Shown here: positions 6,238 to 64,000 of the stretch, in pieces | Layout: each line of letters opens with the position of its first letter | Numbering within the stretch: position 1 is the first letter of the stretch | From: a virus | Lineage: Duplodnaviria > Heunggongvirae > Uroviricota > Caudoviricetes | Direction: 5' to 3' (one strand) | Virus record (IMG/VR): IMGVR_UViG_3300025913_000018 | Length of the DNA: 64,000 nucleotides | Made by a program: the position numbers and the translations under genes | The notes under the pieces: model-generated | Database searches by the model: none | Told to the model about the DNA's origin: nothing | Seen by the model: the letters and a program-made list of their open reading frames with translations, nothing else

Positions 6238-6765
6238 CTAGGCCTCTTCGATCTTCCCCGTGGGACGAAGGGGCGCGACGACTGCCTTACGCTTCGCCAT
6301 GAACTTGTTGAACGCGTCGTTCTCGGCCGTAGCGAAGGCCTCGGCCTCCACTACGATCTTCGAGAGCCGTTTGCGAAGCGCCTCGCATTGAGGGAGCGAG
6401 AGGAAGACACCCACCCGGAACGAGGGGAGCGTGTAGAAGCCCTTCCCCGCAACCCACTCCGGCTCTTTCTGGTCGCTTTGGGAGAGGATGTAGAGGTAGT
6501 CGCTGACGTCCTTCGCGGGGACGTGGATGGTGAGTCCGTCGATCGGTTCGAGTACGTAGATCTTCCGACGGGAAGAAGCCATCCCCCCGAGATCCAGATG
6601 GCCGTCGGTAGTCGGAGTCCGATCGGGCTCGTGGAACTCCACCCGATGCTTTTCGGTCGCGTCCTTCCTCCACAGCTCCACCAGGTTGTCCGCGATCGAG
6701 TCCTCGCACAAGGTTCGAGGCGGGCTGAGATCGGCGAAGCCCGGGAACAGGTACATCCAGGTCAT
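6238..6765 (-). CDS. hypothetical protein
   Basis: Trimmed to MTWMYLFPGF... (ATG 6763-6765), overlapping the upstream stop as ATGA. Confidence 0.45.
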   Translation of the reverse strand: MTWMYLFPGFADLSPPRTLCEDSIADNLVELWRKDATEKHRVEFHEPDRTPTTDGHLDLGGMASSRRKIYVLEPIDGLTIHVPAKDVSDYLYILSQSDQKEPEWVAGKGFYTLPSFRVGVFLSLPQCEALRKRLSKIVVEAEAFATAENDAFNKFMAKRKAVVAPLRPTGKIEEA

Positions 6766-7559
6766 GCCGGCCTCCGAACGAGAGCGGGGCGGACTTGGAG
6801 GAGGTAGAGGATGTCGTCGTGGATCGCCCACTCGATGTCCAGAACCTCGAAAGACGGGAACGCGTCGCGGCACTTCTCCGTCAGCTCGACGAGCGCGTCC
6901 AGCTCGTCAGTTCCGAGAAGGAGCTTCGAGTGAGTCTCCACCTCGACCTTCAGAGTCCCGATCACGGGGCTCGGCTGGAACATGACGGTCTGGTGACCGA
7001 GACGCGCTGGAGGGTCTACCGTCTCCCCCGTGAGCCGGTACTGGTCCGGGTCGACGATCCCCTGAACGATCGCCTCCCCGAGTCCTCGAACCGCCTCGAC
7101 GACATACTCGTCGGCACCCGTTGCGGGGTTCCGAGTGAAGAGGACCCCCGAGAGTTCGGCCGGGATGAAGGTCTGGATGCAGACGGCCATTTCCGGAGCC
7201 CCCGACACCCCTAGGCGCCTTCGGTACTCCTCCGCCCGCGGCGAGTAGGCCGAAGCCTCGACGCCCCGAATAGCCTCCTCTAGGAACTTCTTCGGGACGT
7301 TCAGGCTGGTGGAGTGGATCCCGGCGAAGGAAGCCTCCACCCCGTCCTCTTTCGGAGCCGAAGAGCGAACCGCGTACGGACCCTGAAGAAGCCCCTCGAC
7401 GAGGGTTCCGATCTCGTCCGGAAGGTCTGCCACCTCCGAGACCGAGAGGGCGAGCCCGTCCGGAACCGGAAGCCCGGCACGAAGGGCGATCGCGAGGGCC
7501 GCCGTCTTCCCGCCGTAGAGGCGAGAGTCGATCGCGTCCGCGAGCGAGGTGAGGGTCAT
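6762..7559 (-). CDS. PEP synthase / pyruvate-phosphate-dikinase N-terminal (PPDK_N, ATP-grasp-like) nucleotide-binding domain protein
   Basis: YGGKTAALAIALRAGLPVPDGLALS and SSAPKEDGVEASFAGIHSTSLNV resemble the GGKAANL...GxPVPxGF and SSA..ED...SFAGQ..T motifs of PEP synthase / rifampin phosphotransferase N-domains. ATGA-coupled to the upstream gene. Confidence 0.65.
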   Translation of the reverse strand: MTLTSLADAIDSRLYGGKTAALAIALRAGLPVPDGLALSVSEVADLPDEIGTLVEGLLQGPYAVRSSAPKEDGVEASFAGIHSTSLNVPKKFLEEAIRGVEASAYSPRAEEYRRRLGVSGAPEMAVCIQTFIPAELSGVLFTRNPATGADEYVVEAVRGLGEAIVQGIVDPDQYRLTGETVDPPARLGHQTVMFQPSPVIGTLKVEVETHSKLLLGTDELDALVELTEKCRDAFPSFEVLDIEWAIHDDILYLLQVRPALVRRPA

Positions 7560-8968
7560 TCGTCGTCTCCCGTGTCCTGGTACGGGGAGGGGTGGCTGAT
7601 GTAGCCGCGATCCGAGTCGAGGCGGAGCTTCATCCCCCTCGGGTAGCGCTTCACCGCGTCCTTCACGCGGAAGATCGGGATCCGCATCTCACGGGCGATG
7701 ATCGAGAGGTGGGAAAGCTCCCCGCCGTTCTCGGTGATGATTCCGCGCGCCTTCTCGATCGCTGCGTTGTTCTCGGGCGTGTTGCTGAGGTCCTTCAGGA
7801 CGAAGATGCAGCCGGGGGATTCCCCGACGTACCCCTCGCACTCCGGAGCCGACGCCAAAACGGTGCACTCGAAATTCCCGTATTTCGCCTGGACCTCGCC
7901 CATCTTCGCGAGAGCCGCTTCCATGACAGGGTTCCGAGAGAAGGAAGATCCTTCTTCGAAGGAGATCCCCGCCCCGAGCAACCAGTCGGTGTGGTAGGGG
8001 TCGTCCATCTGCATCTTCATCCCCGAGACCGAGACTTCCTTCCATTCCGGGGCGAGATGGCGAAGGGAGTGGGAACGACGAAGGGCCCAGTTCTCGAAGG
8101 GCGCGAGGGGGACCTGGAACGTTCGACCGTCCGACGTGACGAGATCGAAGAGGTTCCCATTGGCCTGCTTCAGGACGTCCTCTCGGATCTGAACGAGCTT
8201 CGCCTGGTAGGCGATCTCCCGCTTCATGTCCTCCTCTTCTTGGAACTCGGCTTCGCACTCGGCTTCCTCGCGAGCCTCACGCTCCCCGCGGTAGTCGCGG
8301 TGGTCTTCTTCCTCGTCCGGCGACCCCATCGCTCCGATCGCGCTGATCTTGTGGCCGGCGGCGACGTACTCGCGAATGGCGTCTTCGGGGAGGAGAAGCT
8401 CGTCGCGCCAGAAGGGGGCTTCTCCGACCGGCTCGAACAGGAAGAAGCGGCAGCGTCTGTGGTCGTAGTCGCTCTTCCGGTCGCGGGGGATCTCCACGCA
8501 GATCACGCCCTCGTGAGCGTAGTGGCGGGCCCGGTTCTTCCACCATTTACGGATCAGCGCCATGTGCTCGGGCGCCGTCCCGATATCCTCGTTGGGGTCG
8601 GGCAGGTCGAGCGAAGCGGAGATCGCGTCCTCGGGGCTGAAGGCCACGACCTCGGCGTACGGGCGATACCACGCGTTCTTGATCTTCACGCGACCGGCGT
8701 AGATGAACGCCAGGGTCTTCTGGTACTTCGCCGAAGAACGGTCCTTCGCGACTCGGATCCCCTTCGACGAATCGCCGGTGAACTTCTTCAGACCCTTCAG
8801 GACGTCGATCGCGACGCCCTGAAGCTCCCCCGGATTCCCTCCCGAGAGGGACGTCTGGATCATCCGCCACGCCTTCCCCGGAGCGTCGGAGAGGAGCAAG
8901 CCCCGAGCGTGCTCGGTGATGAAGGAACCCTCGATCAGGAAGTGGGCGACGCGTTCCGTACTGGTCAT
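7556..8968 (-). CDS. protein with C-terminal PEP-utilising (phospho-histidine swivel) domain; N-terminal ~380 aa unknown
   Basis: C-terminus ARGIITENGGELSHLSIIAREMRIPIF resembles the PEP-utilizers mobile domain GG.TSHAAI.ARE.GIP with its catalytic His. An acidic EEED-rich linker sits mid-protein. Confidence 0.65.
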   Translation of the reverse strand: MTSTERVAHFLIEGSFITEHARGLLLSDAPGKAWRMIQTSLSGGNPGELQGVAIDVLKGLKKFTGDSSKGIRVAKDRSSAKYQKTLAFIYAGRVKIKNAWYRPYAEVVAFSPEDAISASLDLPDPNEDIGTAPEHMALIRKWWKNRARHYAHEGVICVEIPRDRKSDYDHRRCRFFLFEPVGEAPFWRDELLLPEDAIREYVAAGHKISAIGAMGSPDEEEDHRDYRGEREAREEAECEAEFQEEEDMKREIAYQAKLVQIREDVLKQANGNLFDLVTSDGRTFQVPLAPFENWALRRSHSLRHLAPEWKEVSVSGMKMQMDDPYHTDWLLGAGISFEEGSSFSRNPVMEAALAKMGEVQAKYGNFECTVLASAPECEGYVGESPGCIFVLKDLSNTPENNAAIEKARGIITENGGELSHLSIIAREMRIPIFRVKDAVKRYPRGMKLRLDSDRGYISHPSPYQDTGDDE

Positions 8969-33869: not shown

Positions 33870-34763
33870 TCACGGAAACTTTCTCGTCGGGGCTCTCGAT
33901 AGGCCCGGCGGACGGATCAACTCGTCCGTGAGCTTCGAGGGGAGATCGTTCGTCTTCCCGAGGAGCGACCCGAGCCCCAAACAGAGCGCCGCGAGGGTGT
34001 CTACGTCGCCTCCGAGGGCGACCGCCTGTACGAGAAGCTCGTGGAGGGTCTCGTGCCGTAGGAGGAGCCCGAAGGCGGCCTCAACGATCATCCTCCCGCT
34101 CGTAGAACCGACCCTCCATTGGACCGGATCCCAGAACCGAGGGTCGGCCCATCCGAGGTGGGACATTGTGGTCGTGAGACCGGTACGAGTCCCGTTGTAG
34201 GCCGCCAGCGCCACGGCCACCGCCGCGTCGATCGAGTCCGGATGGTGGTGGGTAGCGCGAGCCTGAGCTATCGCCGCCGTCATGACGTGATACCCGGCGA
34301 ACTTCTTCTCACCGGTGAATGGGCTGATCAAGCCGACCGGAATCGCTCGCATCGCCGCCCCGCACGTGTCCTTCAGGTTCGTCTCGATTCCTTCGCGGCA
34401 TCTCGCCATGAGGTCGAGGCCTGGTGTCACGCTTCGAGCGGCCTCGGGGAGAACGGCTCTCATCCGGCCGCCATAGCCGGGGGCGGGGTCGAACTTGTAC
34501 TCGGCGACGAACTCGTCCGCGAAGTCCACCGACCTCCACCAGAACTCCGTCTTCATGACCGCGAGCGTCATCTGGGTGTCGTCGGTCGTTCCTCCCGGTC
34601 GATGGTTCCGATCGAGCCCGTGGACTCGGTAGGTGAGCCCGTCGTTGTTCTCCTTCACGAAGGAGAGAGGACGCATCTCGAACCCGGCCCCGTAAGCGTC
34701 GCCCACCATGAAGGCGAGAAGCCACTCGGAAACGGTCTCGACCTCGGGATAGTGCTCAGACAT
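33870..34763 (-). CDS. ADP-ribosylglycohydrolase (ARH/DraG family)
   Basis: N-terminal GDAYGAGFE, GGTTDDTQMTLAV, C-terminal GGDVDTLAALCLGLGSLLG; 297 aa. Confidence 0.8.
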   Translation of the reverse strand: MSEHYPEVETVSEWLLAFMVGDAYGAGFEMRPLSFVKENNDGLTYRVHGLDRNHRPGGTTDDTQMTLAVMKTEFWWRSVDFADEFVAEYKFDPAPGYGGRMRAVLPEAARSVTPGLDLMARCREGIETNLKDTCGAAMRAIPVGLISPFTGEKKFAGYHVMTAAIAQARATHHHPDSIDAAVAVALAAYNGTRTGLTTTMSHLGWADPRFWDPVQWRVGSTSGRMIVEAAFGLLLRHETLHELLVQAVALGGDVDTLAALCLGLGSLLGKTNDLPSKLTDELIRPPGLSRAPTRKFP

Positions 34764-55979: not shown

Positions 55980-56312
55980 TTACGCCTCGGGTTCGACGTC
56001 CCCAAACCGATGCGCGCACCACTGGCACTCCACCCTCTGCTCCTTCGAGGCGTCGACCCGAAGGACGAGGATGTCCAGGAACCAGGTCTTCTCGCCCTCC
56101 TTCGTCCAGTAGACGCTCCGCATCCTCCTCTTCGGAAGATGGTCGCAGTGAGGACATCTCAACGCGTTCACGTTGACGAGGGTCTCCGAGAACAACGGCA
56201 TCTCTAGCTGAAGACGTGAGTGGAGCGGGAGACGAGGCTCCACGGGTAGCTCTTCCCTCACTCGAAACGCTCCGACGTACTCGGGTTCAGAGGTGACGTA
56301 GACCGGCTTCAC
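55980..56312 (-). CDS. zinc-binding hypothetical protein (GTG start)
   Basis: VKPVYVTSEPEY...CPHCDH...CQWC. Confidence 0.4.
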   Translation of the reverse strand: MKPVYVTSEPEYVGAFRVREELPVEPRLPLHSRLQLEMPLFSETLVNVNALRCPHCDHLPKRRMRSVYWTKEGEKTWFLDILVLRVDASKEQRVECQWCAHRFGDVEPEA

Positions 56313-56941
56313 TCGTCGTCTCGCGGTACGGGTCCGTGGGTCGGACAATCGCTCGAAGGGACCCCTTCGTGATAGTCGCCCGGACCACAGGCACAGGTGG
56401 GCAGGAACGTTGAGCAAGGCCCGGAGTGTCCGTTCCTGAGAAAACAAGAGAGTCCCGAAACCACTTTCCCGCAGAACGCGAGCGGTTGTCGATCGGGTTC
56501 CCCCGCATAGACCGTCTCGTGAGGCTTCCATGCAGCCAGGCGTTGGTACTTCTCCTCGGTGGAGTGACCGTCGTACTTTCCTGCATAGGCTGGGAACCCC
56601 GAAGAGGACTTTCGGTCCTCCGCCGTCATGTGCCACGAGACCTGACCCGTGGGGAGGTCGATGTAGAGGATCGGCCACGCCATCGCGTCTTCCGGATCCA
56701 TCGAGAGATCGAGACCCCATCCGACGCGATGACCAAGGCGAGAGGCCGAACGAGCGAGCGAGAGAACCACCTTCGAACGCTCGGCGTAGACCTCGTTGAG
56801 GTTCTGGTTGGCCTTTTCGAGAGCGCCCATGGCCTTCTTCGCCAGTTCCAGGAGTTCGTTGGAGGAGGCCTCGGCCCGCTCCGAACGGCCCTCATGGAGC
56901 TTCAGGAGCTTCTCGTAGGTCTTCAGCAGTTCGTCGATCAT
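56309..56941 (-). CDS. hypothetical protein
   Basis: 210 aa. Confidence 0.55.
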   Translation of the reverse strand: MIDELLKTYEKLLKLHEGRSERAEASSNELLELAKKAMGALEKANQNLNEVYAERSKVVLSLARSASRLGHRVGWGLDLSMDPEDAMAWPILYIDLPTGQVSWHMTAEDRKSSSGFPAYAGKYDGHSTEEKYQRLAAWKPHETVYAGEPDRQPLAFCGKVVSGLSCFLRNGHSGPCSTFLPTCACGPGDYHEGVPSSDCPTHGPVPRDDE

Positions 56942-57444: not shown

Positions 57445-58014
57445 TTACATGTCCGTGAGGTCGATCTCTTCGCCCGTGATCGCTTCCGTACACGTCACGA
57501 TCGTCCCGATCGAAGTGTGAGTGATCTTCCAGGTGTACCCGCCGCCAATCGCTCCGTAGTAGGGGCCGCCACCGGTCATCCTCTTCATCCTCTCACCGGT
57601 GTTCTGCTTCGCGACGGCTTTCGCTCGAACCTCTTCGGTCCATCGCAACCAGCGCTCGTACTGGAGCCGATCGAGCGTAATCCCGACGGTCATCTCCAGC
57701 TCCCACACCATCGGACGTCTCATCGTCATCTGGAACTCGTGGTCGAGCCCGTGATTGTAGAGGGCGATGACCTTCGTCGTCCAGTACGAATCCTCGTTCT
57801 TGTAGAAGAGACCGTGGATCTCCCGCGGGTCCTCGCCCTTCTTCACACCTAACGTGTACTCCGTCCCGTCCGTGACGGCTATCACGAAGAGATGGGTGTC
57901 CCCGGCTTCCTTACTGGCGGAGAGCCATCCGCGAAGCTTCTCGCGGTCGACCACTCGATCGCTGAGGTCTCCGTACGCCTTCAACTCTTCTGGGGTGGGT
58001 TCGCGAACGGTCAT
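57445..58014 (-). CDS. hypothetical protein
   Basis: 189 aa; GAAGGA SD. Confidence 0.55.
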   Translation of the reverse strand: MTVREPTPEELKAYGDLSDRVVDREKLRGWLSASKEAGDTHLFVIAVTDGTEYTLGVKKGEDPREIHGLFYKNEDSYWTTKVIALYNHGLDHEFQMTMRRPMVWELEMTVGITLDRLQYERWLRWTEEVRAKAVAKQNTGERMKRMTGGGPYYGAIGGGYTWKITHTSIGTIVTCTEAITGEEIDLTDM

Positions 58015-58196
58015 GGGGAATCCTTCTCGAAACTGGGAGACCTACAGTCCGCCCCGTCCTCGGAGAGATGGGGACGAAAAGCCGAGGCGGGGTCGCTGAA
58101 GATCCGACCGCATCGCTTACAGGTACACGAACGCTCTTCGTCGGTAACGAACCGACCCAGAACTCGGTTCTCGAAGGGTGATTCCTTCTCTATCAT
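58011..58196 (-). CDS. small zinc-ribbon protein
   Basis: CTCKRCG...C. Confidence 0.4.
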   Translation of the reverse strand: MIEKESPFENRVLGRFVTDEERSCTCKRCGRIFSDPASAFRPHLSEDGADCRSPSFEKDSP

Positions 58197-58492
58197 TCTT
58201 CGGGCTTGGGCTTGTAGTACGCGTCCTCGTGTACGTCAGAGAGATGGATGAGAGCGAGATGGGAAAGCGCGAGCGAGTTGATCACCACGTCCGCAGCCCC
58301 GAGAGCGTCTTGAAGAAGTTGTTTCCTCGCCCCTCTCTTCCCTCGAAGACTCTCTGCGATCTCGGCGCGAACACCCCTGTAGAATAAGACCTGGGTCTTG
58401 ATCTGGTCGATGTGATCGCAGAGGGGGATCTCCCCCGGGCAGAAACGGTCCCCGTCGAAAATGACGAGATGGTTTCGCTTCGTCTTCTTCAT
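58193..58492 (-). CDS. hypothetical protein; possible NYN/PIN-like domain (HLVIFDGD)
   Basis: Weak resemblance of the N-terminal hhhFhDG.N motif to NYN-domain nucleases. Confidence 0.4.
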   Translation of the reverse strand: MKKTKRNHLVIFDGDRFCPGEIPLCDHIDQIKTQVLFYRGVRAEIAESLRGKRGARKQLLQDALGAADVVINSLALSHLALIHLSDVHEDAYYKPKPEE

Positions 58493-58794
58493 GACTCCTC
58501 TTCCTCTTCCGTTTTCTCGATGGAGTTGGCGTAGATGCGCTCGACCTCTTTGTATCCGAGATGGGCGTCGAGGGCGCAGAGACGAGCTTCTTGGAGGCGA
58601 GCCCTCTTCGTCAGTCTCTGGTTGAGGAGAATCTGACGAGAGCTGATCATGTCAGCGACGTAGTACAACCCGACGCCAACGAAGAGCCAGACCGAAGCGA
58701 TCATACTCCGTGTTCCGAACCCAGAGATCCAGGCGGAAAGAAAACCGCCTGAAAGCATTCCGAGGAACGGGACGAATCGAGGAAGGATCTTCAT
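58489..58794 (-). CDS. membrane protein (two TM helices; holin-like topology)
   Basis: Hydrophobic segments FVPFLGMLSGGFLSAWISGF and IASVWLFVGVGLYYVA. Confidence 0.45.
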   Translation of the reverse strand: MKILPRFVPFLGMLSGGFLSAWISGFGTRSMIASVWLFVGVGLYYVADMISSRQILLNQRLTKRARLQEARLCALDAHLGYKEVERIYANSIEKTEEEEES

Positions 58795-58804
58795 CGACCC
58801 TCCA

Positions 58805-59533
58805 TTACTCGGTAGAGATTCTGGGCTTCAGGTCGACGATGATCGGAGGGTTCTTCGGCTTCCCGTCCGCGTTGAAGAGCGCCGCGTTCAGACAGAGCGT
58901 TCCGAACTCCGTGACGTAGAGACCTCGACGAGGATGGATGTGTCCGAAGGCGTGGATACGGGGCTTCACCCTCTCGATCGCCCGACGGAGCGCGGGCGAG
59001 CCCGTGAAGTCGTAGTACCCATCCTTCCGGATCATGAGATCCAGAATCCCCTTCGGAGGACTGTGGGTGACGAGAACGTCGATCGGACCCCGAATGTGGT
59101 TGAAGGCCCGCTCGTCTTCGCCTGGGGTAGTCGTCTGGAAGGCGAAGTCTCCGCAGTACCCGACCCAGGGCGCCCCGTAGAACACCAGCCCCTCGACCGT
59201 AGCCGCCCCGTCCTGCAGGTAGATGACCCCGGCCCGGCGGAAGCGGTCTCGTGCCATGGCGGGGCCTTCCGGCCACCCCTTACGGGTGAGGGGACAGGTC
59301 TCGTCCAAGATCTCGTCATGGTTCCCCGCGACGACCACGATGTGCTTCACGTACCCCTTCTTGAGGAGCATCGCGCACCAATCAGCGAACGTCCCCAGCT
59401 CCCCAAGCGTGCCGTGGTACTCGCAGAAGTCCCCGCAGTGGACGAGGATGTCGATCCCCGCCTTCTTCGTCAGGAACTGAGTGACCTTCGTGTGATGAAG
59501 GTGGGTGTCGCTGATGAAGGCGAGGCGGGTCAT
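58805..59533 (-). CDS. calcineurin-like metallophosphoesterase
   Basis: Motifs ISDTHLHH, GDF, GNHD, THSPP, GHIH. Confidence 0.75.
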   Translation of the reverse strand: MTRLAFISDTHLHHTKVTQFLTKKAGIDILVHCGDFCEYHGTLGELGTFADWCAMLLKKGYVKHIVVVAGNHDEILDETCPLTRKGWPEGPAMARDRFRRAGVIYLQDGAATVEGLVFYGAPWVGYCGDFAFQTTTPGEDERAFNHIRGPIDVLVTHSPPKGILDLMIRKDGYYDFTGSPALRRAIERVKPRIHAFGHIHPRRGLYVTEFGTLCLNAALFNADGKPKNPPIIVDLKPRISTE

Positions 59534-59745
59534 ACGCGAGAGAGCGGGATACGGAAGCGTTCCCCCGAATCTGTCTTCACGTGGATGTGGTCATCGGCCC
59601 CGACCCAGAAAGCGACGAACCCGACCGGAGGCGGCTCTGGCTCGTAACCCGGAGGTCTCTTCTGAGCGAGGTACGTGATCCCGGGCTCTATGAACTTCAG
59701 GGGTTGAAAGGTCTCCGCAACCTTGGTGATGGTATCATCGCTCAT
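59530..59745 (-). CDS. small hypothetical protein
   Basis: 71 aa; GAAGGGGG SD. Confidence 0.45.
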   Translation of the reverse strand: MSDDTITKVAETFQPLKFIEPGITYLAQKRPPGYEPEPPPVGFVAFWVGADDHIHVKTDSGERFRIPLSRV

Positions 59746-59767
59746 GACGGGACGTTACCCCCTTCAC

Positions 59768-60280
59768 TCAAAAGACGGGGTTCTGTCCGTTTTTGAGTTC
59801 GTCGCAGAACTGATCCCAATCCTCTTCCGGAGGCTCCGAAGAGACGAAGCGCTGGCAGGCCTCCTCTGGAGAGAGCGGGGGTCCGAGATCGATCGAACCC
59901 ATACTGAGCCCGAGGTCTCGAACGAACTCACGAGCGCACGAAGGGGAACAGAACATCGTCCCATCGTACACGTAGTCCCTACAGGTAGCGCACGGACCCG
60001 TGGGCAACGGGCGATGAGGCTTCTTCGGGTCGACCTCTTCGTACGAGGGGACGATCCCGTCGAACTGAGCGACGGTCGGATCAACGACCGAACCGTCCGG
60101 AGCGACGCACCACCAGTGGGTATCTTCGCCCCACAGGCAGAAGACAAACCCGCACGCTCTTCGAAGCTCGGGGAACTCCGCGACCATCTCTCGCGTCGCC
60201 TCTCCGCACCGCCCCCGGACGAAGTTCTTGTGACGAGCGACGAAAGCCGCTGTCCACGCCTCGTAACGAGGATCGCTCAC
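59768..60280 (-). CDS. Cys-rich hypothetical protein (GTG start)
   Basis: GTGA coupling. Confidence 0.45.
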   Translation of the reverse strand: MSDPRYEAWTAAFVARHKNFVRGRCGEATREMVAEFPELRRACGFVFCLWGEDTHWWCVAPDGSVVDPTVAQFDGIVPSYEEVDPKKPHRPLPTGPCATCRDYVYDGTMFCSPSCAREFVRDLGLSMGSIDLGPPLSPEEACQRFVSSEPPEEDWDQFCDELKNGQNPVF

Positions 60281-60675
60281 AGGGCGCAACACTCGGTGTG
60301 AGCCTTCGACGAACCCTTCTGGTGGTAGGTCTTCGAGGCTTCGATCGGTTGCTTGCAGAAGCAGCACGGGTCTTTGTGGGTCGTCTTCGCCGTCTTCAAC
60401 GGTCTCTCTCGAAGGAGTTCCTTCCAGCGGACACGAGCAGCTTCTCGGTGGGCCGCTTCCTGTTCCGCGTCTCGCTTCTCCAACGCCTCCATGAAGGCGT
60501 CCGACATCAGATACCCCTTCTGAGCGAGGTAGTAGACGATCGCGTTACGGTAGGGACCAGGGGCAGTCCGAGTGACCTTCGCCTCGGCTTCCTCCTGGGA
60601 GAAGATGTGGTCCGCCGAAACTTGGGCCATGAAGTTGTTCGCCGCGGGTCCGCGGAGGGTCACTGTACGCATCAC
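60277..60675 (-). CDS. hypothetical protein
   Basis: 132 aa; C-terminal CCFCK...HTECC. Confidence 0.5.
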   Translation of the reverse strand: MMRTVTLRGPAANNFMAQVSADHIFSQEEAEAKVTRTAPGPYRNAIVYYLAQKGYLMSDAFMEALEKRDAEQEAAHREAARVRWKELLRERPLKTAKTTHKDPCCFCKQPIEASKTYHQKGSSKAHTECCAL

Positions 60676-60962
60676 TCGCTCCTCGTTACGAACTCGAACA
60701 TCTCGATGTCGACCAACGTAGTCTCCAAGACGCAGTCCTCGCTCATGAAGAGGATCGGACGAAAGAACATCCGGATTCGATCGTTCGGAGCCGGGAGGGA
60801 CTCCTTCGGACCCAAGAACAGGCCACGCTTCGAAGCCTCCGAGGCGATCCCGAGGATGGAAAGGAAGCCCCCCTCCTCCGACTTCAGGAAGAGCTTCAGG
60901 CGAAGGGCTTCGACCCGAGCGTCTTCGAAGGAGTAGTGCTTGATCTGTACGGGTTGGCCCAC
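60672..60962 (-). CDS. hypothetical protein (GTG start)
   Basis: GGCGTAAGG SD. Confidence 0.45.
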   Translation of the reverse strand: MGQPVQIKHYSFEDARVEALRLKLFLKSEEGGFLSILGIASEASKRGLFLGPKESLPAPNDRIRMFFRPILFMSEDCVLETTLVDIEMFEFVTRSE

Positions 60963-60975
60963 GTATCCCTTACGC

Positions 60976-62328
60976 CTACCAGAGCTTGTCCCCCGCCCGA
61001 GGCCCGAAAGACTGAACAGCCACCGGGATATCCAGCTCCTGTTCGAGCTTCCTCACGTAGTCCCCCACGTCGTCGTTTCGAACGGTCTGATAGATCGGCC
61101 TACACCCGAGAAGGTCTCGGGTGAGCTGGCTCTGATAGTCGAGGTCCCCAGGCGCGCGAGGACGAAGGGAACTAGCCCGACCCCCTTCCATGAAGAAGCG
61201 TTCCTCGCTCCCCGGAGGAACCTCGTACGCCTCGCACATCGACCACTGAGGGAAATAGCGAAGTCGATCCAGACACGTCACCGCGAGTTCGGTGATGTCG
61301 GGGCACAGACTGAGCGCGTAGCGAGCGAGGGGGAGATCGAACCACCCCACTCGGAAAGATCCTTGCCATCCTGCGTCATGGTTGGCGGCGTCCCGGAGCG
61401 CCTTAGTGAGCGCCTCGTTCTCGGTCGGGAACGGTCCCTGACCGTGACGGGTCGAGTAGGCGCGGAGAACGCCGATACGACGGACCGGACCTTCGCGCCC
61501 CGATTCCTTGATCAGGTCGTCGGCGTTCTTCGTCGTGGTCGTACTCCACGTCGTGTGTGGATGGAACCCGTGCCACTCATCCAAGAGGACTCCCTGAGCC
61601 CCTTCGAAGATGACGTGTTCGGTTCCAGAGATCTGAGCCTCGACCTGATACGGAGCCGCGATGTGGACCATCTCTCCCACATCGAAGTAGAGGAGAAGGG
61701 CCATCTCCTCCAGCATTCCGATCTTGCGGAAGACTCGAAGGTCCTCCGAAGCGCTTTCCATTCCCTGGAGCTTCGGGAGAAGAGGTTCGATCTGAGCCAA
61801 CTTCAACTCCCGAAGCTGGTTCATCTTGCTCAGGAGGATCTTCGAGTCCCGAAGGTCCCCAGCTCGAAGGACGAGATCCGGATGGTCGAGGGAGTCCCCT
61901 ACCGTCTCCCCGACACCCAACCCACACGTACCGTGACGACCTTCTCCCCTCGCCATCTCCCGAAGGCGGTTGGCTGCTTGCTGGTAGGGGGAGATCACGA
62001 GCGCCCTCTCGTCGACCACGAGTCGAGAAAGAGCGTCACTCACCCCGATGGAGATGAGATGGTTGTTCTCAGCGAGGAGACCGGAAGGGTGGAAGACGAA
62101 GTGCTTCGAGAGAAGCGTTCGAGACCCGGGAACGAATGTAGCCGCCCCGAACTGAGAGAACACATGCTCTCTTCCGTCCGGGGCGACAACACGATGACCA
62201 GCTTGGGCGCCGCCATTGTGCCTCACTACGAGAGGCGGCGACGAACAGCGACGCGCGATAGCGTCGACCATCGTGCCCTTACCCGCGTCACCGAAACCGA
62301 GATCTACGACGACGTGGGTAGAGGGCAC
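60976..62328 (-). CDS. adenylosuccinate synthetase family protein (PurA/PurZ-like), divergent
   Basis: VVVDLGFGDAGKGTMVD (PurA P-loop GDEGKGK), RHNGGAQAGHRVV (QGGHNAGHT), HVIFEGAQGVLLDEWHG, AYSTRHGQGPFPTE. The Asp-binding loop reads GWQGSFRV instead of TTGRRRR, and CLD replaces the GTP-specificity KLD. Confidence 0.75.
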   Translation of the reverse strand: MPSTHVVVDLGFGDAGKGTMVDAIARRCSSPPLVVRHNGGAQAGHRVVAPDGREHVFSQFGAATFVPGSRTLLSKHFVFHPSGLLAENNHLISIGVSDALSRLVVDERALVISPYQQAANRLREMARGEGRHGTCGLGVGETVGDSLDHPDLVLRAGDLRDSKILLSKMNQLRELKLAQIEPLLPKLQGMESASEDLRVFRKIGMLEEMALLLYFDVGEMVHIAAPYQVEAQISGTEHVIFEGAQGVLLDEWHGFHPHTTWSTTTTKNADDLIKESGREGPVRRIGVLRAYSTRHGQGPFPTENEALTKALRDAANHDAGWQGSFRVGWFDLPLARYALSLCPDITELAVTCLDRLRYFPQWSMCEAYEVPPGSEERFFMEGGRASSLRPRAPGDLDYQSQLTRDLLGCRPIYQTVRNDDVGDYVRKLEQELDIPVAVQSFGPRAGDKLW

Positions 62329-62337
62329 GGCAGGACC

Positions 62338-63315
62338 TCAGATACGAACGGTGCCGCCGGTCGAGTCACCCGAGTCGGGGAGCTTCCCGACGAGGGAACC
62401 CGGCGTCGCGCGAGCGAGGGCATCCTTCAGCGGAACGATCGCCGCTCCGACCGACTTCACGGTTCCGGCGCTCGCGCCCGAGTCGCGAAGCACCCCGTTC
62501 ACCGCATCGATGGAGTGGCCCTCGCAGAGACCGATCGTCGCCGCGATCAGCTCGCAGATGCTTCCCGGATCGTCGAGCTTCAGCGCACGCTCTCCGAGCA
62601 GCTCCTTCCACCCGGCGAGGATCGAGGGATGATTGCCCGTGGGCGTCCCCACGACGATGTGGAAGACGTTGTAGCGGCTCTGACACGCGCGGATCAGATC
62701 CTTCACCTGGACGTCGGCCTCGTTCGAGTCACCGAAGATCCGCAACGCCTCGTCGCGCTTGATCGTCGGCCAGACCAGCTCGTCGCCGATCGTGAAGAGG
62801 TAGCCCGGCTTCCCGCGCTTCTCCCAGCAATCGATGCTGGTGTGATTCGCGAAGAAGTAGTGGGCGAGCCCGTACGACTCCATGTTCTGACCACCACCGT
62901 TCCCCTCGATGTAGATGTCGGTCAGGCACTGGTCGATCTCCAGGCCCGACTCGAACTGACCGACCTGGAACGGGGTCGTGTCCGAGTACGAGTCGCCCAC
63001 AGCCCCGAAGAGAACCTGGGGGTGGGGGATCACGCTCTTCTCGACGAGCATCCGCATCAGCCCACCCAGCTTGTGCTGGGCGAACTCGAAGGGCGTGTGG
63101 CCCATCGATCCCGTGACGTCGAAGATCACGCCGATCGCGTTCGACTCCGGGTGATCCGCCGAATCGCGCGACTCGCGAACCTTCACCCCCTTCGGGTCGA
63201 GACTCGGCTTGAGCTTCGTCGAGAAGACCTTCGCCTTCGCCGTTCCGTAGTCCATCGTTGCACGGGGTGCGCTGATGTTCTTGTACGCATCATCCGACCA
63301 ACTGGAGTAACCCAT
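62338..63315 (-). CDS. von Willebrand factor type A (vWA) domain protein
   Basis: MIDAS motif IGVIFDVTGSMGH (DxSGS). Confidence 0.65.
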   Translation of the reverse strand: MGYSSWSDDAYKNISAPRATMDYGTAKAKVFSTKLKPSLDPKGVKVRESRDSADHPESNAIGVIFDVTGSMGHTPFEFAQHKLGGLMRMLVEKSVIPHPQVLFGAVGDSYSDTTPFQVGQFESGLEIDQCLTDIYIEGNGGGQNMESYGLAHYFFANHTSIDCWEKRGKPGYLFTIGDELVWPTIKRDEALRIFGDSNEADVQVKDLIRACQSRYNVFHIVVGTPTGNHPSILAGWKELLGERALKLDDPGSICELIAATIGLCEGHSIDAVNGVLRDSGASAGTVKSVGAAIVPLKDALARATPGSLVGKLPDSGDSTGGTVRI

Positions 63316-63332
63316 CTTCGACCTTCTTTCGT

Positions 63333-64000
63333 TCAGACTCGCGGAGGCATCGTAAACGCACGATACTTCCTCTTCCCGAAGTTCTTCTCCAGAACTTCAT
63401 CGTAGACCCGGTAGGCGTCCCACCCGTTCTTGATGCCGCCGGAGCGACACACGGTGAAGAACGCATCCACGTTCGCGGGAACGTCCGAGCGGACCTTCCC
63501 CTTTCGATCCGAGACGAGGAGCGCCGCGCACTCCCCGATGAGCTGGACGTCCAGCACCGAGGTCGCCGGAGCCTTCTTCAGTACCGAGGCAGGGTACATG
63601 TCCTTCCGCGAGGCGCTGATGGCGGTGAGCCGCTGGCCGCTCTGAACCGCGTACGACCAGCCGACGATCCGAGCCCCGTGACCCACGGGATCGACCAGGA
63701 CGTGCTCCGGAAGAACAGCTCCGTGAACGAGGTTGTGGCTGTGGATCCAGCCGAGTCCCTCGAAGGCGCGACGAATCATCCACGCCGCATCCCGCACGTC
63801 GAGCCCGTCCGGGTACGCCGTCCGAACCTCCGCGAGACTGAAGTAGCCCTCGGCTACGTCGAGAACATTCACCCTTCGGTGCTTCCCGCCCTCGATCATC
63901 GGGAAGCTGTCCAGGAGCTTCGGGAAATACTTCTGGAAGACGGGCGCCTTCGCATCGTCCTTTCCGTGGATGTTCGCGAGGAAACGCGCCTCGTTGTCGA
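63333..64000 (-). CDS. protein-kinase-like fold protein with degenerate catalytic motifs (probable pseudokinase); N-terminus beyond window end
   Basis: LGWIHSHNLVHGAVLPEHVLVD...ARIVGWSYA aligns to kinase subdomains VIb-VII (HRDLKPENILL...DFG) with HRD to HGA, N to H and DFG to GWS. The reading frame continues to base 64000. Confidence 0.45.
   Translation of the reverse strand, partial: DNEARFLANIHGKDDAKAPVFQKYFPKLLDSFPMIEGGKHRRVNVLDVAEGYFSLAEVRTAYPDGLDVRDAAWMIRRAFEGLGWIHSHNLVHGAVLPEHVLVDPVGHGARIVGWSYAVQSGQRLTAISASRKDMYPASVLKKAPATSVLDVQLIGECAALLVSDRKGKVRSDVPANVDAFFTVCRSGGIKNGWDAYRVYDEVLEKNFGKRKYRAFTMPPRV

Follow-up and report, generated by a model that had tools for sequence, protein, structure and literature searches.

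At one end of a 64,000-nucleotide stretch of phage-like DNA (IMG/VR record IMGVR_UViG_3300025913_000018, Caudoviricetes; hereafter the window), a gene for a von Willebrand factor A (vWA) fold protein lies beside a gene for a kinase-fold protein, and the question raised by this locus is what such a pair might do in a phage. The first-pass annotation, made from the window alone, read it as a possible signalling or sensor module, or a decoy, recalling the TerY-P triads; it left the adjacent gene, which encodes a relative of the adenylosuccinate synthetase PurA, unlinked to the other two, and the J-domain of the kinase-like protein lay outside its view. Our analysis points to a conserved trio, in which a J-domain pseudokinase, the vWA protein and a divergent PurA paralogue are encoded in this order. 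These are known domain types in an undescribed combination, which can be likened to systems made up of a chaperone, a vWA adaptor and an enzyme. In a search of open-access papers and bioRxiv preprints, we found no description of the trio as a unit, and a genome note on cluster C mycobacteriophages lists a “serine/threonine kinase” and a “PurA-like adenylosuccinate synthetase” with no comment (PMC9476963).

The arrangement of the three genes is shared well beyond this phage. The trio spans at least 586 bacterial species and at least 502 (about 500) viral contigs, which were found by scanning bacteria with one genome per species and by a pattern-based scan of IMG/VR viral contigs; 80 loci from each set were analysed, and for synteny the denominators given below count only those loci whose sequence reaches far enough on the side in question. 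The complete trio was seen in 71/76 of these eligible loci in the viral set and in 52/69 in the genome set, and the exact same-strand order of J-domain pseudokinase, vWA and PurA-like gene is found in 65 of the 80 IMG/VR loci, at GC contents from 25 to 70%. The vWA gene is partnered most constantly by the PurA-like gene, which adjoins it downstream in 78/79 viral and 69/73 genome loci, while adjacency between the vWA and J-domain pseudokinase genes (73/77 viral and 60/76 genome loci) is also far beyond chance. In the window, 17 nt separate the stop of the kinase-like gene from the vWA start, and 9 nt separate the vWA stop from the PurA-like start. Five phyla are represented among the genome loci (Actinomycetota, Chloroflexota, Bacteroidota, Planctomycetota and Myxococcota), and many of the trio-bearing viral contigs are 130 to 437 kb long. 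Among named phages, cluster C mycobacteriophages carry the genes at about 33% identity (in Alice, gp246, annotated as a “kinase”, gp247, a small gp248 and the PurA-like gp249), and the vWA and PurA-like pair is also found in Vibrio phage phiKT1024 and Rhizobium phage RHph_Y65. The genes upstream of vWA in these last two phages have no Pfam match and no match to a hidden Markov model (HMM) of the J-domain kinase family even at E ≤ 10, and thus gave no sign of being hidden J-domain kinases.

The kinase-like gene is indeed cut by the window edge, as had been noted, and its missing part could be recovered. A search for exact copies of the proteins turned up two longer metagenome contigs with the same genes (L002, 100.8 kb, and L003, 110 kb), which are identical to the window contig where shared and carry sequence past position 64000. 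The full-length protein has 363 residues, and the codons for its J-domain HPD motif and its VAIK lysine lie beyond position 64000. In the AlphaFold2 (AF2) model, the J-domain occupies residues 1 to 81, with a helix at 32–50, HPD at 51–53 and a second helix at 61–81; HPD is invariant in an alignment of 53 sequences of the family, and comparison of the family profile with residues 17–56 of the E. coli DnaJ J-domain using hhalign gave a probability of 94.5% (E 8e-8). By this predicted HPD hairpin and profile match, the N-terminus is a J-domain. A Pfam DnaJ match is also recorded for several homologues, and chromosomal homologues are named “molecular chaperone DnaJ” by NCBI.

The kinase-fold resemblance that was first proposed is upheld in both HMM and structure searches. 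The protein matches phrog_3043 “kinase” (1e-26), and its homologue Alice gp246 scores 37.9 bits with Pfam Pkinase, above the cut-off of 31.7. The AF2 model (pLDDT 95.8) has the bilobal fold of eukaryotic protein kinases, with Foldseek matches at E ~1e-10 and TM ~0.7 to PknB, YabT, PknG, CASK and VRK3, and Aurora A was also matched. Translation of the fragment inside the window (...LVHGAVLPEHVLV...ARIVGWSYA...) bears out the changes of HRD to HGA, of the catalytic-loop Asn to His and of DFG to GWS. The statement that all catalytic motifs are degenerate holds for these three but not for the VAIK lysine (K131) and the αC glutamate (E145), which are retained and are both invariant in the 53-sequence alignment; the full-length protein likewise keeps part of a VAIK/HRD/DFG set, namely the lysine, but HRD and DFG are not intact. 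Among 137 homologues from bacterial and viral loci, the HRD histidine is universal, but the aspartate position is Ala, Gly or Ser in 135 and Asp in only 2, and the DFG aspartate is present in 45. An alignable N-lobe with the Lys and Glu is missing in 43/73 viral and 11/64 bacterial members. A short form of about 290 residues, which occurs in Bacteroidota and in the majority of low-GC phages, no longer has the N-lobe with Lys and Glu and retains HPD together with the C-lobe motifs His249-Gly, Tyr277-Pro and Asp292. Thus, what is conserved in the family is the J-domain and the surface of the kinase C-lobe, not the phosphotransfer site, and the sequence record supports the earlier suggestion of a pseudokinase or scaffold. 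In PADLOC, the vWA and PurA-like proteins have no defence-system match, and the kinase domain has only weak matches to defence kinases (MADS6, 3.5e-6; MkoA, 3.8e-5; and PglW).

The vWA protein, whose gene is the hub of the trio, has no match to any Pfam family at E ≤ 0.1, including the vWA and TerY models, and none in NCBIfam, and it matches a PHROG of unassigned function (phrog_2971, 1e-51). Nevertheless, the first reading of this gene as vWA/MIDAS (metal-ion-dependent adhesion site) was sound. The AF2 model, built from 50 homologues, has a pLDDT of 92.9, the top Foldseek matches against the PDB are all vWA/MIDAS domains (E ~1e-4), and both MIDAS-type motifs sit at strand ends of the model, D66-x-T68-G-S70 closing the predicted β1 (59–66) and G177-D178-E179 closing β4 (171–177). 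Membership is thus at the level of fold and motif only, and the metal site is predicted. The N-terminus follows the pattern Met-Gly-x-[SG]-x-Trp-[SD]-x-Asp-x-Tyr in 162/165 loci, and a second family-specific motif precedes β1. Overall, the protein has a mean column identity of 49%, with many invariant charged residues.

Two observations concern the annotation of vWA genes elsewhere. Inteins favour functional sites, and an intein splits the vWA-like gene in many cluster C mycobacteriophages; in Alice gp247 (L001, 5705–7489), it lies between “RKGY” and “IGDE”, exactly at the MIDAS β4 loop, with weak matches to Pfam Hint and Intein_splicing. It is because of this intein that the vWA-like gene is annotated as an HNH endonuclease in phage Pinkcreek in its genome note (PMC9476963). 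We also came across an open reading frame (ORF) of 1498 residues in a Gemmataceae locus (L032) that resembled a vWA fusion, but it has no Pfam matches outside the vWA part and was taken as an artefact of a stop-free frame.

The third protein belongs to the PurA family by its Pfam match, and the question is which member of this family it is. It scores 176.6 bits with the NCBIfam PurA model NF002223 (cut-off 402), 155.2 bits with TIGR00184 (cut-off 395.55) and 37.9 bits with the PurZ model (cut-off 300). In E. coli PurA, the L-aspartate site is formed by Thr300, Thr301, Arg303 and Arg305 together with Arg131, and the IMP 5′-phosphate site by Asn38, Thr129 and Arg143′; Asp13 and His41 act as catalytic base and acid and Gln224 and Thr239 contact the base. 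When 78 trio-linked paralogues were aligned to E. coli PurA, D13, K16, H41 and T239 were kept in 78/78 each and Q224 in 77/78, and the G4 Asp333, which gives guanine specificity for GTP, was kept in 75/78. The aspartate pocket is altered in nearly all of them (T300W/Y in 71/78, T301Q in 75/78, R303 deleted in 77/78 and R305F/W in 65/78, with Arg131 variable), as is the site for the IMP phosphate (N38Q and T129C in 75/78 each, with Arg143 variable), and V273H (76/78) and K331H/C (73/78) are further changes. The window protein has Thr300 replaced by W, Thr301 by Q, Arg305 by F and Arg131 by L, with Arg303 deleted, and at the phosphate site it has Asn38 replaced by Q, Thr129 by C and Arg143′ by H. 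Judged from its sequence, the protein is a distinct PurA paralogue, neither an ordinary PurA nor PurZ; GTP-dependent activation of a 6-oxopurine nucleotide has probably been kept, but free aspartate is an unlikely substrate. Phage PurA homologues outside PurZ and PurZ0 have been grouped as “other PurA homologs” (PMC12884076).

In one bacterial variant (L171, 2262–4358; protein P0320), the PurA-like domain is part of a 698-residue fusion with Peptidase_S51, the dipeptidase E/cyanophycinase family (4.1e-20), and its gene comes immediately behind those for a J-domain protein and a vWA-like protein. The S51 domain was sought in all 165 loci and found in this locus only, and the fusion belongs to a single 8-member cluster. 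The features of the window locus are collected in Table 1.

Table 1. Genes and motifs of the trio in the window, and the nearby phosphoesterase gene, with positions in the 64,000-nt stretch.
Feature	Position	Strand	Basis or remark
J-domain and kinase-fold pseudokinase, C-terminal 221 codons (residues 143-363 of 363)	63333..64000	-	cut by window edge
αC Glu E145 in DNEARF	63981-63998	-	just inside window
HGA replacing HRD	63717-63725	-	translation
His replacing catalytic-loop Asn	63702-63704	-	translation
GWS replacing DFG	63654-63662	-	translation
325-residue vWA-fold protein, hub gene of the trio	62338..63315	-	AF2, Foldseek, motifs
Family-specific N-terminus MGxSxWSxDxY	63280-63315	-	invariant
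RESRDSxxHP motif, before β1	63148-63177	-	invariant
MIDAS-type DVTGS (D66-V-T68-G-S70)	63106-63120	-	invariant, 50 homologues
MIDAS-type GDE (G177-D178-E179)	62779-62787	-	invariant, 50 homologues
450-residue divergent PurA-family (adenylosuccinate-synthetase-fold) enzyme	60976..62328	-	Pfam PF00709 Adenylsucc_synt 8e-66
P-loop GFGDAGKG	62275-62298	-	sequence
Calcineurin-like metallophosphoesterase	58805-59533	-	Pfam Metallophos 8e-16; PADLOC PDC-S10 6.4e-51

The neighbours of the trio in other genomes give some indication of when it may be used. In Actinomadura oligospora, an operon with overlapping stop and start codons runs from NrtR (Nudix plus NrtR winged helix) through the J-domain pseudokinase and vWA to the PurA-like gene, and on a 762-kb contig the order is NrtR, NAMPT, NMNAT-like, J-domain pseudokinase, vWA and PurA-like. 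By phmmer, NrtR-like genes flank 38 of the 80 genome loci, all in Actinomycetota, and NrtR-like and NAMPT matches accompany the trio genes in 4 of the 80 phage loci, where Pfam confirms NrtR in L113, L137 and L146 and NAMPT in L113. An adjacent Nudix plus NrtR winged-helix regulator is seen in Actinomadura (L006), in L008 and in these three phage loci, and in RHph_Y65, a PRTase-like gene and an NMNAT/Nudix gene lie just upstream. NrtR regulators sense ADP-ribose (PMC9503650 and references therein). The window itself encodes an ADP-ribosylglycohydrolase 27 kb from the trio (33870–34763, minus strand; Pfam ADP_ribosyl_GH 3.9e-28; PHROG 6572), which makes a second gene in this phage with a relation to ADP-ribose.

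A different neighbour recurs in viral loci, where an ATP-grasp gene of the R2K clade directly follows the PurA-like gene in 29/80 cases. For example, the R2K gene of L107 (2183–2938) matches Pfam R2K_2 at 4.4e-20, and in this group of loci (among L104–L167) it often overlaps the PurA-like stop codon. The clade has been predicted to consist of protein–peptide ligases (PMC4431377). The flanks in the same low-GC phage lineage are rich in genes of RNA-repair type, namely HAD_SAK_2, RNA ligase, DNA ligase and Rv2179c-like exoribonuclease. Clustering of the flanks of the 80 bacterial loci gave nothing recurrent beyond the NrtR-like regulators.

How might the three proteins work together? On balance, we lean towards a model at the level of architecture, in which a GTP-dependent PurA-like ligase, a MIDAS adaptor and a pseudokinase scaffold that recruits Hsp70 would form one module tied to NAD/ADP-ribose stress. 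The module would be self-contained and co-transcribed, read 5′ to 3′ on the minus strand of the window from a class-C J-domain/pseudokinase through the vWA gene to the PurA paralogue, and in this case carried by a large phage. The PurA paralogue would be the catalytic effector and would phosphorylate a 6-oxopurine nucleotide at the expense of GTP before transferring it to an amine; the replaced pocket suggests an acceptor other than free L-aspartate. Near-universal adjacency makes the vWA protein a candidate obligate partner of the enzyme, and its metal site may hold on to an acidic group, located on either the enzyme or the acceptor, in the way of the MIDAS adaptors of MoxR-vWA systems (CbbQO, NorQD). 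The invariant HPD suggests that the J-protein could bring host DnaK/Hsp70 to the vWA/PurA-like pair, with the kinase-fold pseudokinase as its client-binding part. The kinase-like C-lobe would then be a docking scaffold rather than a phosphotransferase, since the family as a whole lacks the catalytic aspartate and many of its members do without the N-lobe. The linkage to NrtR and NAMPT suggests deployment when NAD+ is broken down, and in a phage the module could have an auxiliary metabolic function or one in counter-defence or takeover.

Several observations weigh against parts of this model. About 20% of bacterial loci, those of Nocardia for instance, have no J-domain pseudokinase, which means that the core must be able to work without recruiting Hsp70. 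Two Chloroflexota loci (L011 and L023) have the J-domain pseudokinase and vWA genes and no adjacent PurA-like gene, so the enzyme gene need not accompany the pair, at least in the immediate neighbourhood; a sigma-70/TPR or LysR regulator in divergent orientation comes next in these loci. The long-form pseudokinases keep the Lys and Glu and could bind nucleotide or have a non-canonical activity, and conservation as high as that of the vWA protein is seen more typically in catalytic subunits or substrate carriers than in passive adaptors. The link to NAD is limited to Actinomycetota and about 5% of phage loci, with no NrtR in the non-actinobacterial genome loci and neither NrtR nor NAMPT near the trio in the window. 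In Chloroflexota, Bacteroidota and Planctomycetota, the flanks are unrelated housekeeping genes (by Pfam, a response regulator, thioredoxin-like, GAF, RlmN, an EF-hand protein, sigma-70 and LysR), and this variety outside Actinomycetota implies that the module is self-contained.

In any specific chemistry we have much less confidence than in the architecture. A doubtful extension of the model is that the trio represents a new enzymatic system, in which an enzyme of PurA fold now takes a new amine acceptor in place of free aspartate, the system being induced in bacteria by ADP-ribose/NAD+ stress and serving large phages in takeover or counter-defence. The acceptor might be the N-terminus of a protein or peptide, or a lysine, for example the invariant N-terminal glycine of the vWA partner or a host protein delivered by the vWA protein, the J-protein and DnaK; another possibility is that the vWA protein completes the active site in trans, the arginines of its RESRDS motif replacing those lost from PurA, and that the product is a new nucleotide metabolite. 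Modification of proteins or peptides may also be considered as an explanation in its own right, in which the PurA paralogue would attach a purine nucleotide, via C6, to a protein or peptide amine (the N-terminal Gly of the mature vWA protein, or a host protein presented by the vWA protein, the J-protein and DnaK), giving an N6-linked AMP–protein adduct that other amide-bond enzymes would sometimes extend or trim. This would account for the aromatic residues in place of the aspartate pocket and the loss of the carboxylate-binding R131, R303 and R305, as well as for the conserved Met-Gly peptide of the vWA protein, which may, however, be simply structural. The R2K ligase gene and the S51 fusion described above point in the same direction, but the former is limited to one low-GC phage lineage and the latter to a single cluster. 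Both vWA and J-domains are, in addition, modules that handle peptides or clients (PMC9503650). Nevertheless, the support is wholly inferential and no such modification is known, and we consider this explanation unlikely. A more conventional proposal is that the enzyme serves purine salvage, boosting phage AMP by the canonical reaction or by IMP + NH3 -> AMP, with the vWA protein and the J-domain pseudokinase as folding or stabilising factors. It would agree with the placement of the enzyme closest to PurA by Pfam and NCBIfam, with the name adenylosuccinate synthetase given to it by all databases, with the retention of the catalytic residues and Asp333, and with the NAD salvage genes, whose pathway consumes ATP, at some loci. 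Yet the score is far below the PurA equivalog cut-off, the residues that contact aspartate and the IMP phosphate are systematically changed, and no housekeeping PurA is known to need a vWA or J-protein partner. Carrier bacteria are also expected to have a normal purA, and in L028 a canonical PurA is encoded 3 kb away, all of which makes salvage improbable in our view.

Two further explanations can be set aside with more assurance. That the enzyme belongs to the PurZ-type pathway for 2-aminoadenine (Z) genomes is suggested by the label of PHROG 1211, “2-aminooxy adenylosuccinate synthetase”, and by the RefSeq product names in Alice and RHph_Y65, but we find it hardly credible. The PurZ score falls far short of the cut-off, the aspartate pocket that PurZ still needs is gone, and the same gene is found in Rhodococcus, Nocardia, Niastella and other chromosomes. 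PurZ is, moreover, defined by a Ser at the Asp13 position (the Ser14 criterion; 10.1101/2025.10.22.683976), which is Asp in every trio-linked paralogue surveyed. The trio enzyme resembles PurA, PurZ and PurZ0 in fold and PF00709 match and in its P-loop, Asp13, Lys16, His41, Gln224, Thr239 and Asp333, and it differs from PurA and PurZ in falling below both NCBIfam cut-offs, in the altered aspartate pocket and IMP-phosphate contacts and in its constant pairing with vWA. The original analogy with TerY-P, in which a vWA sensor, a kinase and a metallophosphoesterase would act as a phospho-signalling switch or decoy, is very unlikely. The TerY-P triad, reportedly described by Anantharaman, Iyer and Aravind in 2012, is said to consist of the vWA protein TerY, a Ser/Thr kinase and a PP2C phosphatase. 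The likeness is that a vWA gene adjoins a gene with a Hanks-type kinase fold, here with a phosphoesterase 3 kb away, and the weak PADLOC matches of the kinase-like protein and the PDC-S10 match of the phosphoesterase could be read in the same sense. The phosphoesterase gene is real, but its proximity is peculiar to this phage: among about 165 related loci, it stands beside the trio only in the two copies of this phage and is absent from every other trio locus examined. It is also calcineurin-like, and no PP2C phosphatase was found; the kinase-like protein has a J-domain and lacks the catalytic Asp, the vWA protein matches no Pfam vWA or TerY model, and the constant third gene is PurA-like.

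The architecture-level model can also be placed beside known systems. In MoxR AAA+/vWA adaptor systems (CbbQ-CbbO, NorQ-NorD and RavA-ViaA), there is an AAA+ ATPase, of which the trio has none; instead, its link to chaperones would be the J-domain, with recruitment of host Hsp70, and its enzyme a PurA paralogue, while its vWA protein has an N-terminal peptide and RESRDSxxHP motif of its own and no Pfam vWA match. A J-domain and a kinase in one polypeptide are also found in eukaryotic GAK/auxilin-2, which shares with the trio protein an HPD J-domain and a kinase fold in one chain; in the trio, however, the J-domain is N-terminal, the kinase domain is degenerate, and the gene is bacterial or phage-encoded and operonic with vWA and PurA-like genes. 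The phage J-protein Rki of RB43 is presumed to hijack host DnaK, and the same is presumed of the phage-encoded J-domain of the trio. Finally, there is some likeness to the phage NAD+ reconstitution pathways NARP1, NARP2 and NARP3, in that some trio loci are beside NrtR, NAMPT and NMNAT-like genes, which are of NARP2 type, and the window phage has an ADP-ribosylglycohydrolase. The enzymes described for these pathways are Adps/Namat, Nampt/Nmnat and PnuC/NadR (10.1101/2024.02.11.579819; PMC13464706), and no PurA-like, vWA or J-domain protein is among them; most trio loci, in addition, have no NAD gene nearby. NARP3 was considered as a related system and rejected, as it is a PnuC and NadR pair unrelated to the trio.

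As for the element that carries the genes in this case, the window has a phage-like organisation, with 74 of 87 ORFs of high third-position GC (GC3) on one strand, most ORFs small and without a Pfam or PHROG function, and no tRNAs in its 64 kb. Megablast of positions 58000–64000 against 50,697 phage records gave no match at the DNA level, and the phage is known from metagenomes only. An identical PurA-like protein (P0241, window 60976–62328) is also recorded on a 472,929-bp contig, which means that the element may be a jumbo or mega phage rather than one of about 100 kb. The phage has further kinase-like genes, namely 6762–7559 and the adjoining 7556–8968 (both minus strand), which match PHROG 18609 “kinase” at 3.7e-12 and 2.9e-4, respectively; the second also matches PHROG 11532 (1e-46). 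A WDGH-domain protein is encoded at 56309–56941 (minus strand; Pfam 6.9e-6, just under the cut-off), with matches to several PHROG families without function.

A number of current labels need correction, as the PurA-like protein is routinely named adenylosuccinate synthetase or, wrongly, PurZ, the vWA protein “hypothetical” or, if it has an intein, “HNH endonuclease”, and the J-domain pseudokinase “serine/threonine kinase” or “molecular chaperone DnaJ”. Relabelling affects both reconstructions of purine metabolism and surveys of phages for Z genomes. Cluster C mycobacteriophages (Alice and Bxz1-like) and Rhodococcus and Nocardia offer tractable systems, and the linkage to NrtR and NAMPT provides a testable tie to the arms race over NAD+ depletion. 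A catalytic core kept without its aspartate pocket predicts new nucleotide chemistry, and, if a protein or peptide is the acceptor, the product would be an N6-linked purine-nucleotide adduct and a new kind of nucleotide–protein conjugation. The fusion of a J-domain to a pseudokinase, for its part, would be a new route by which phages and bacteria direct Hsp70.

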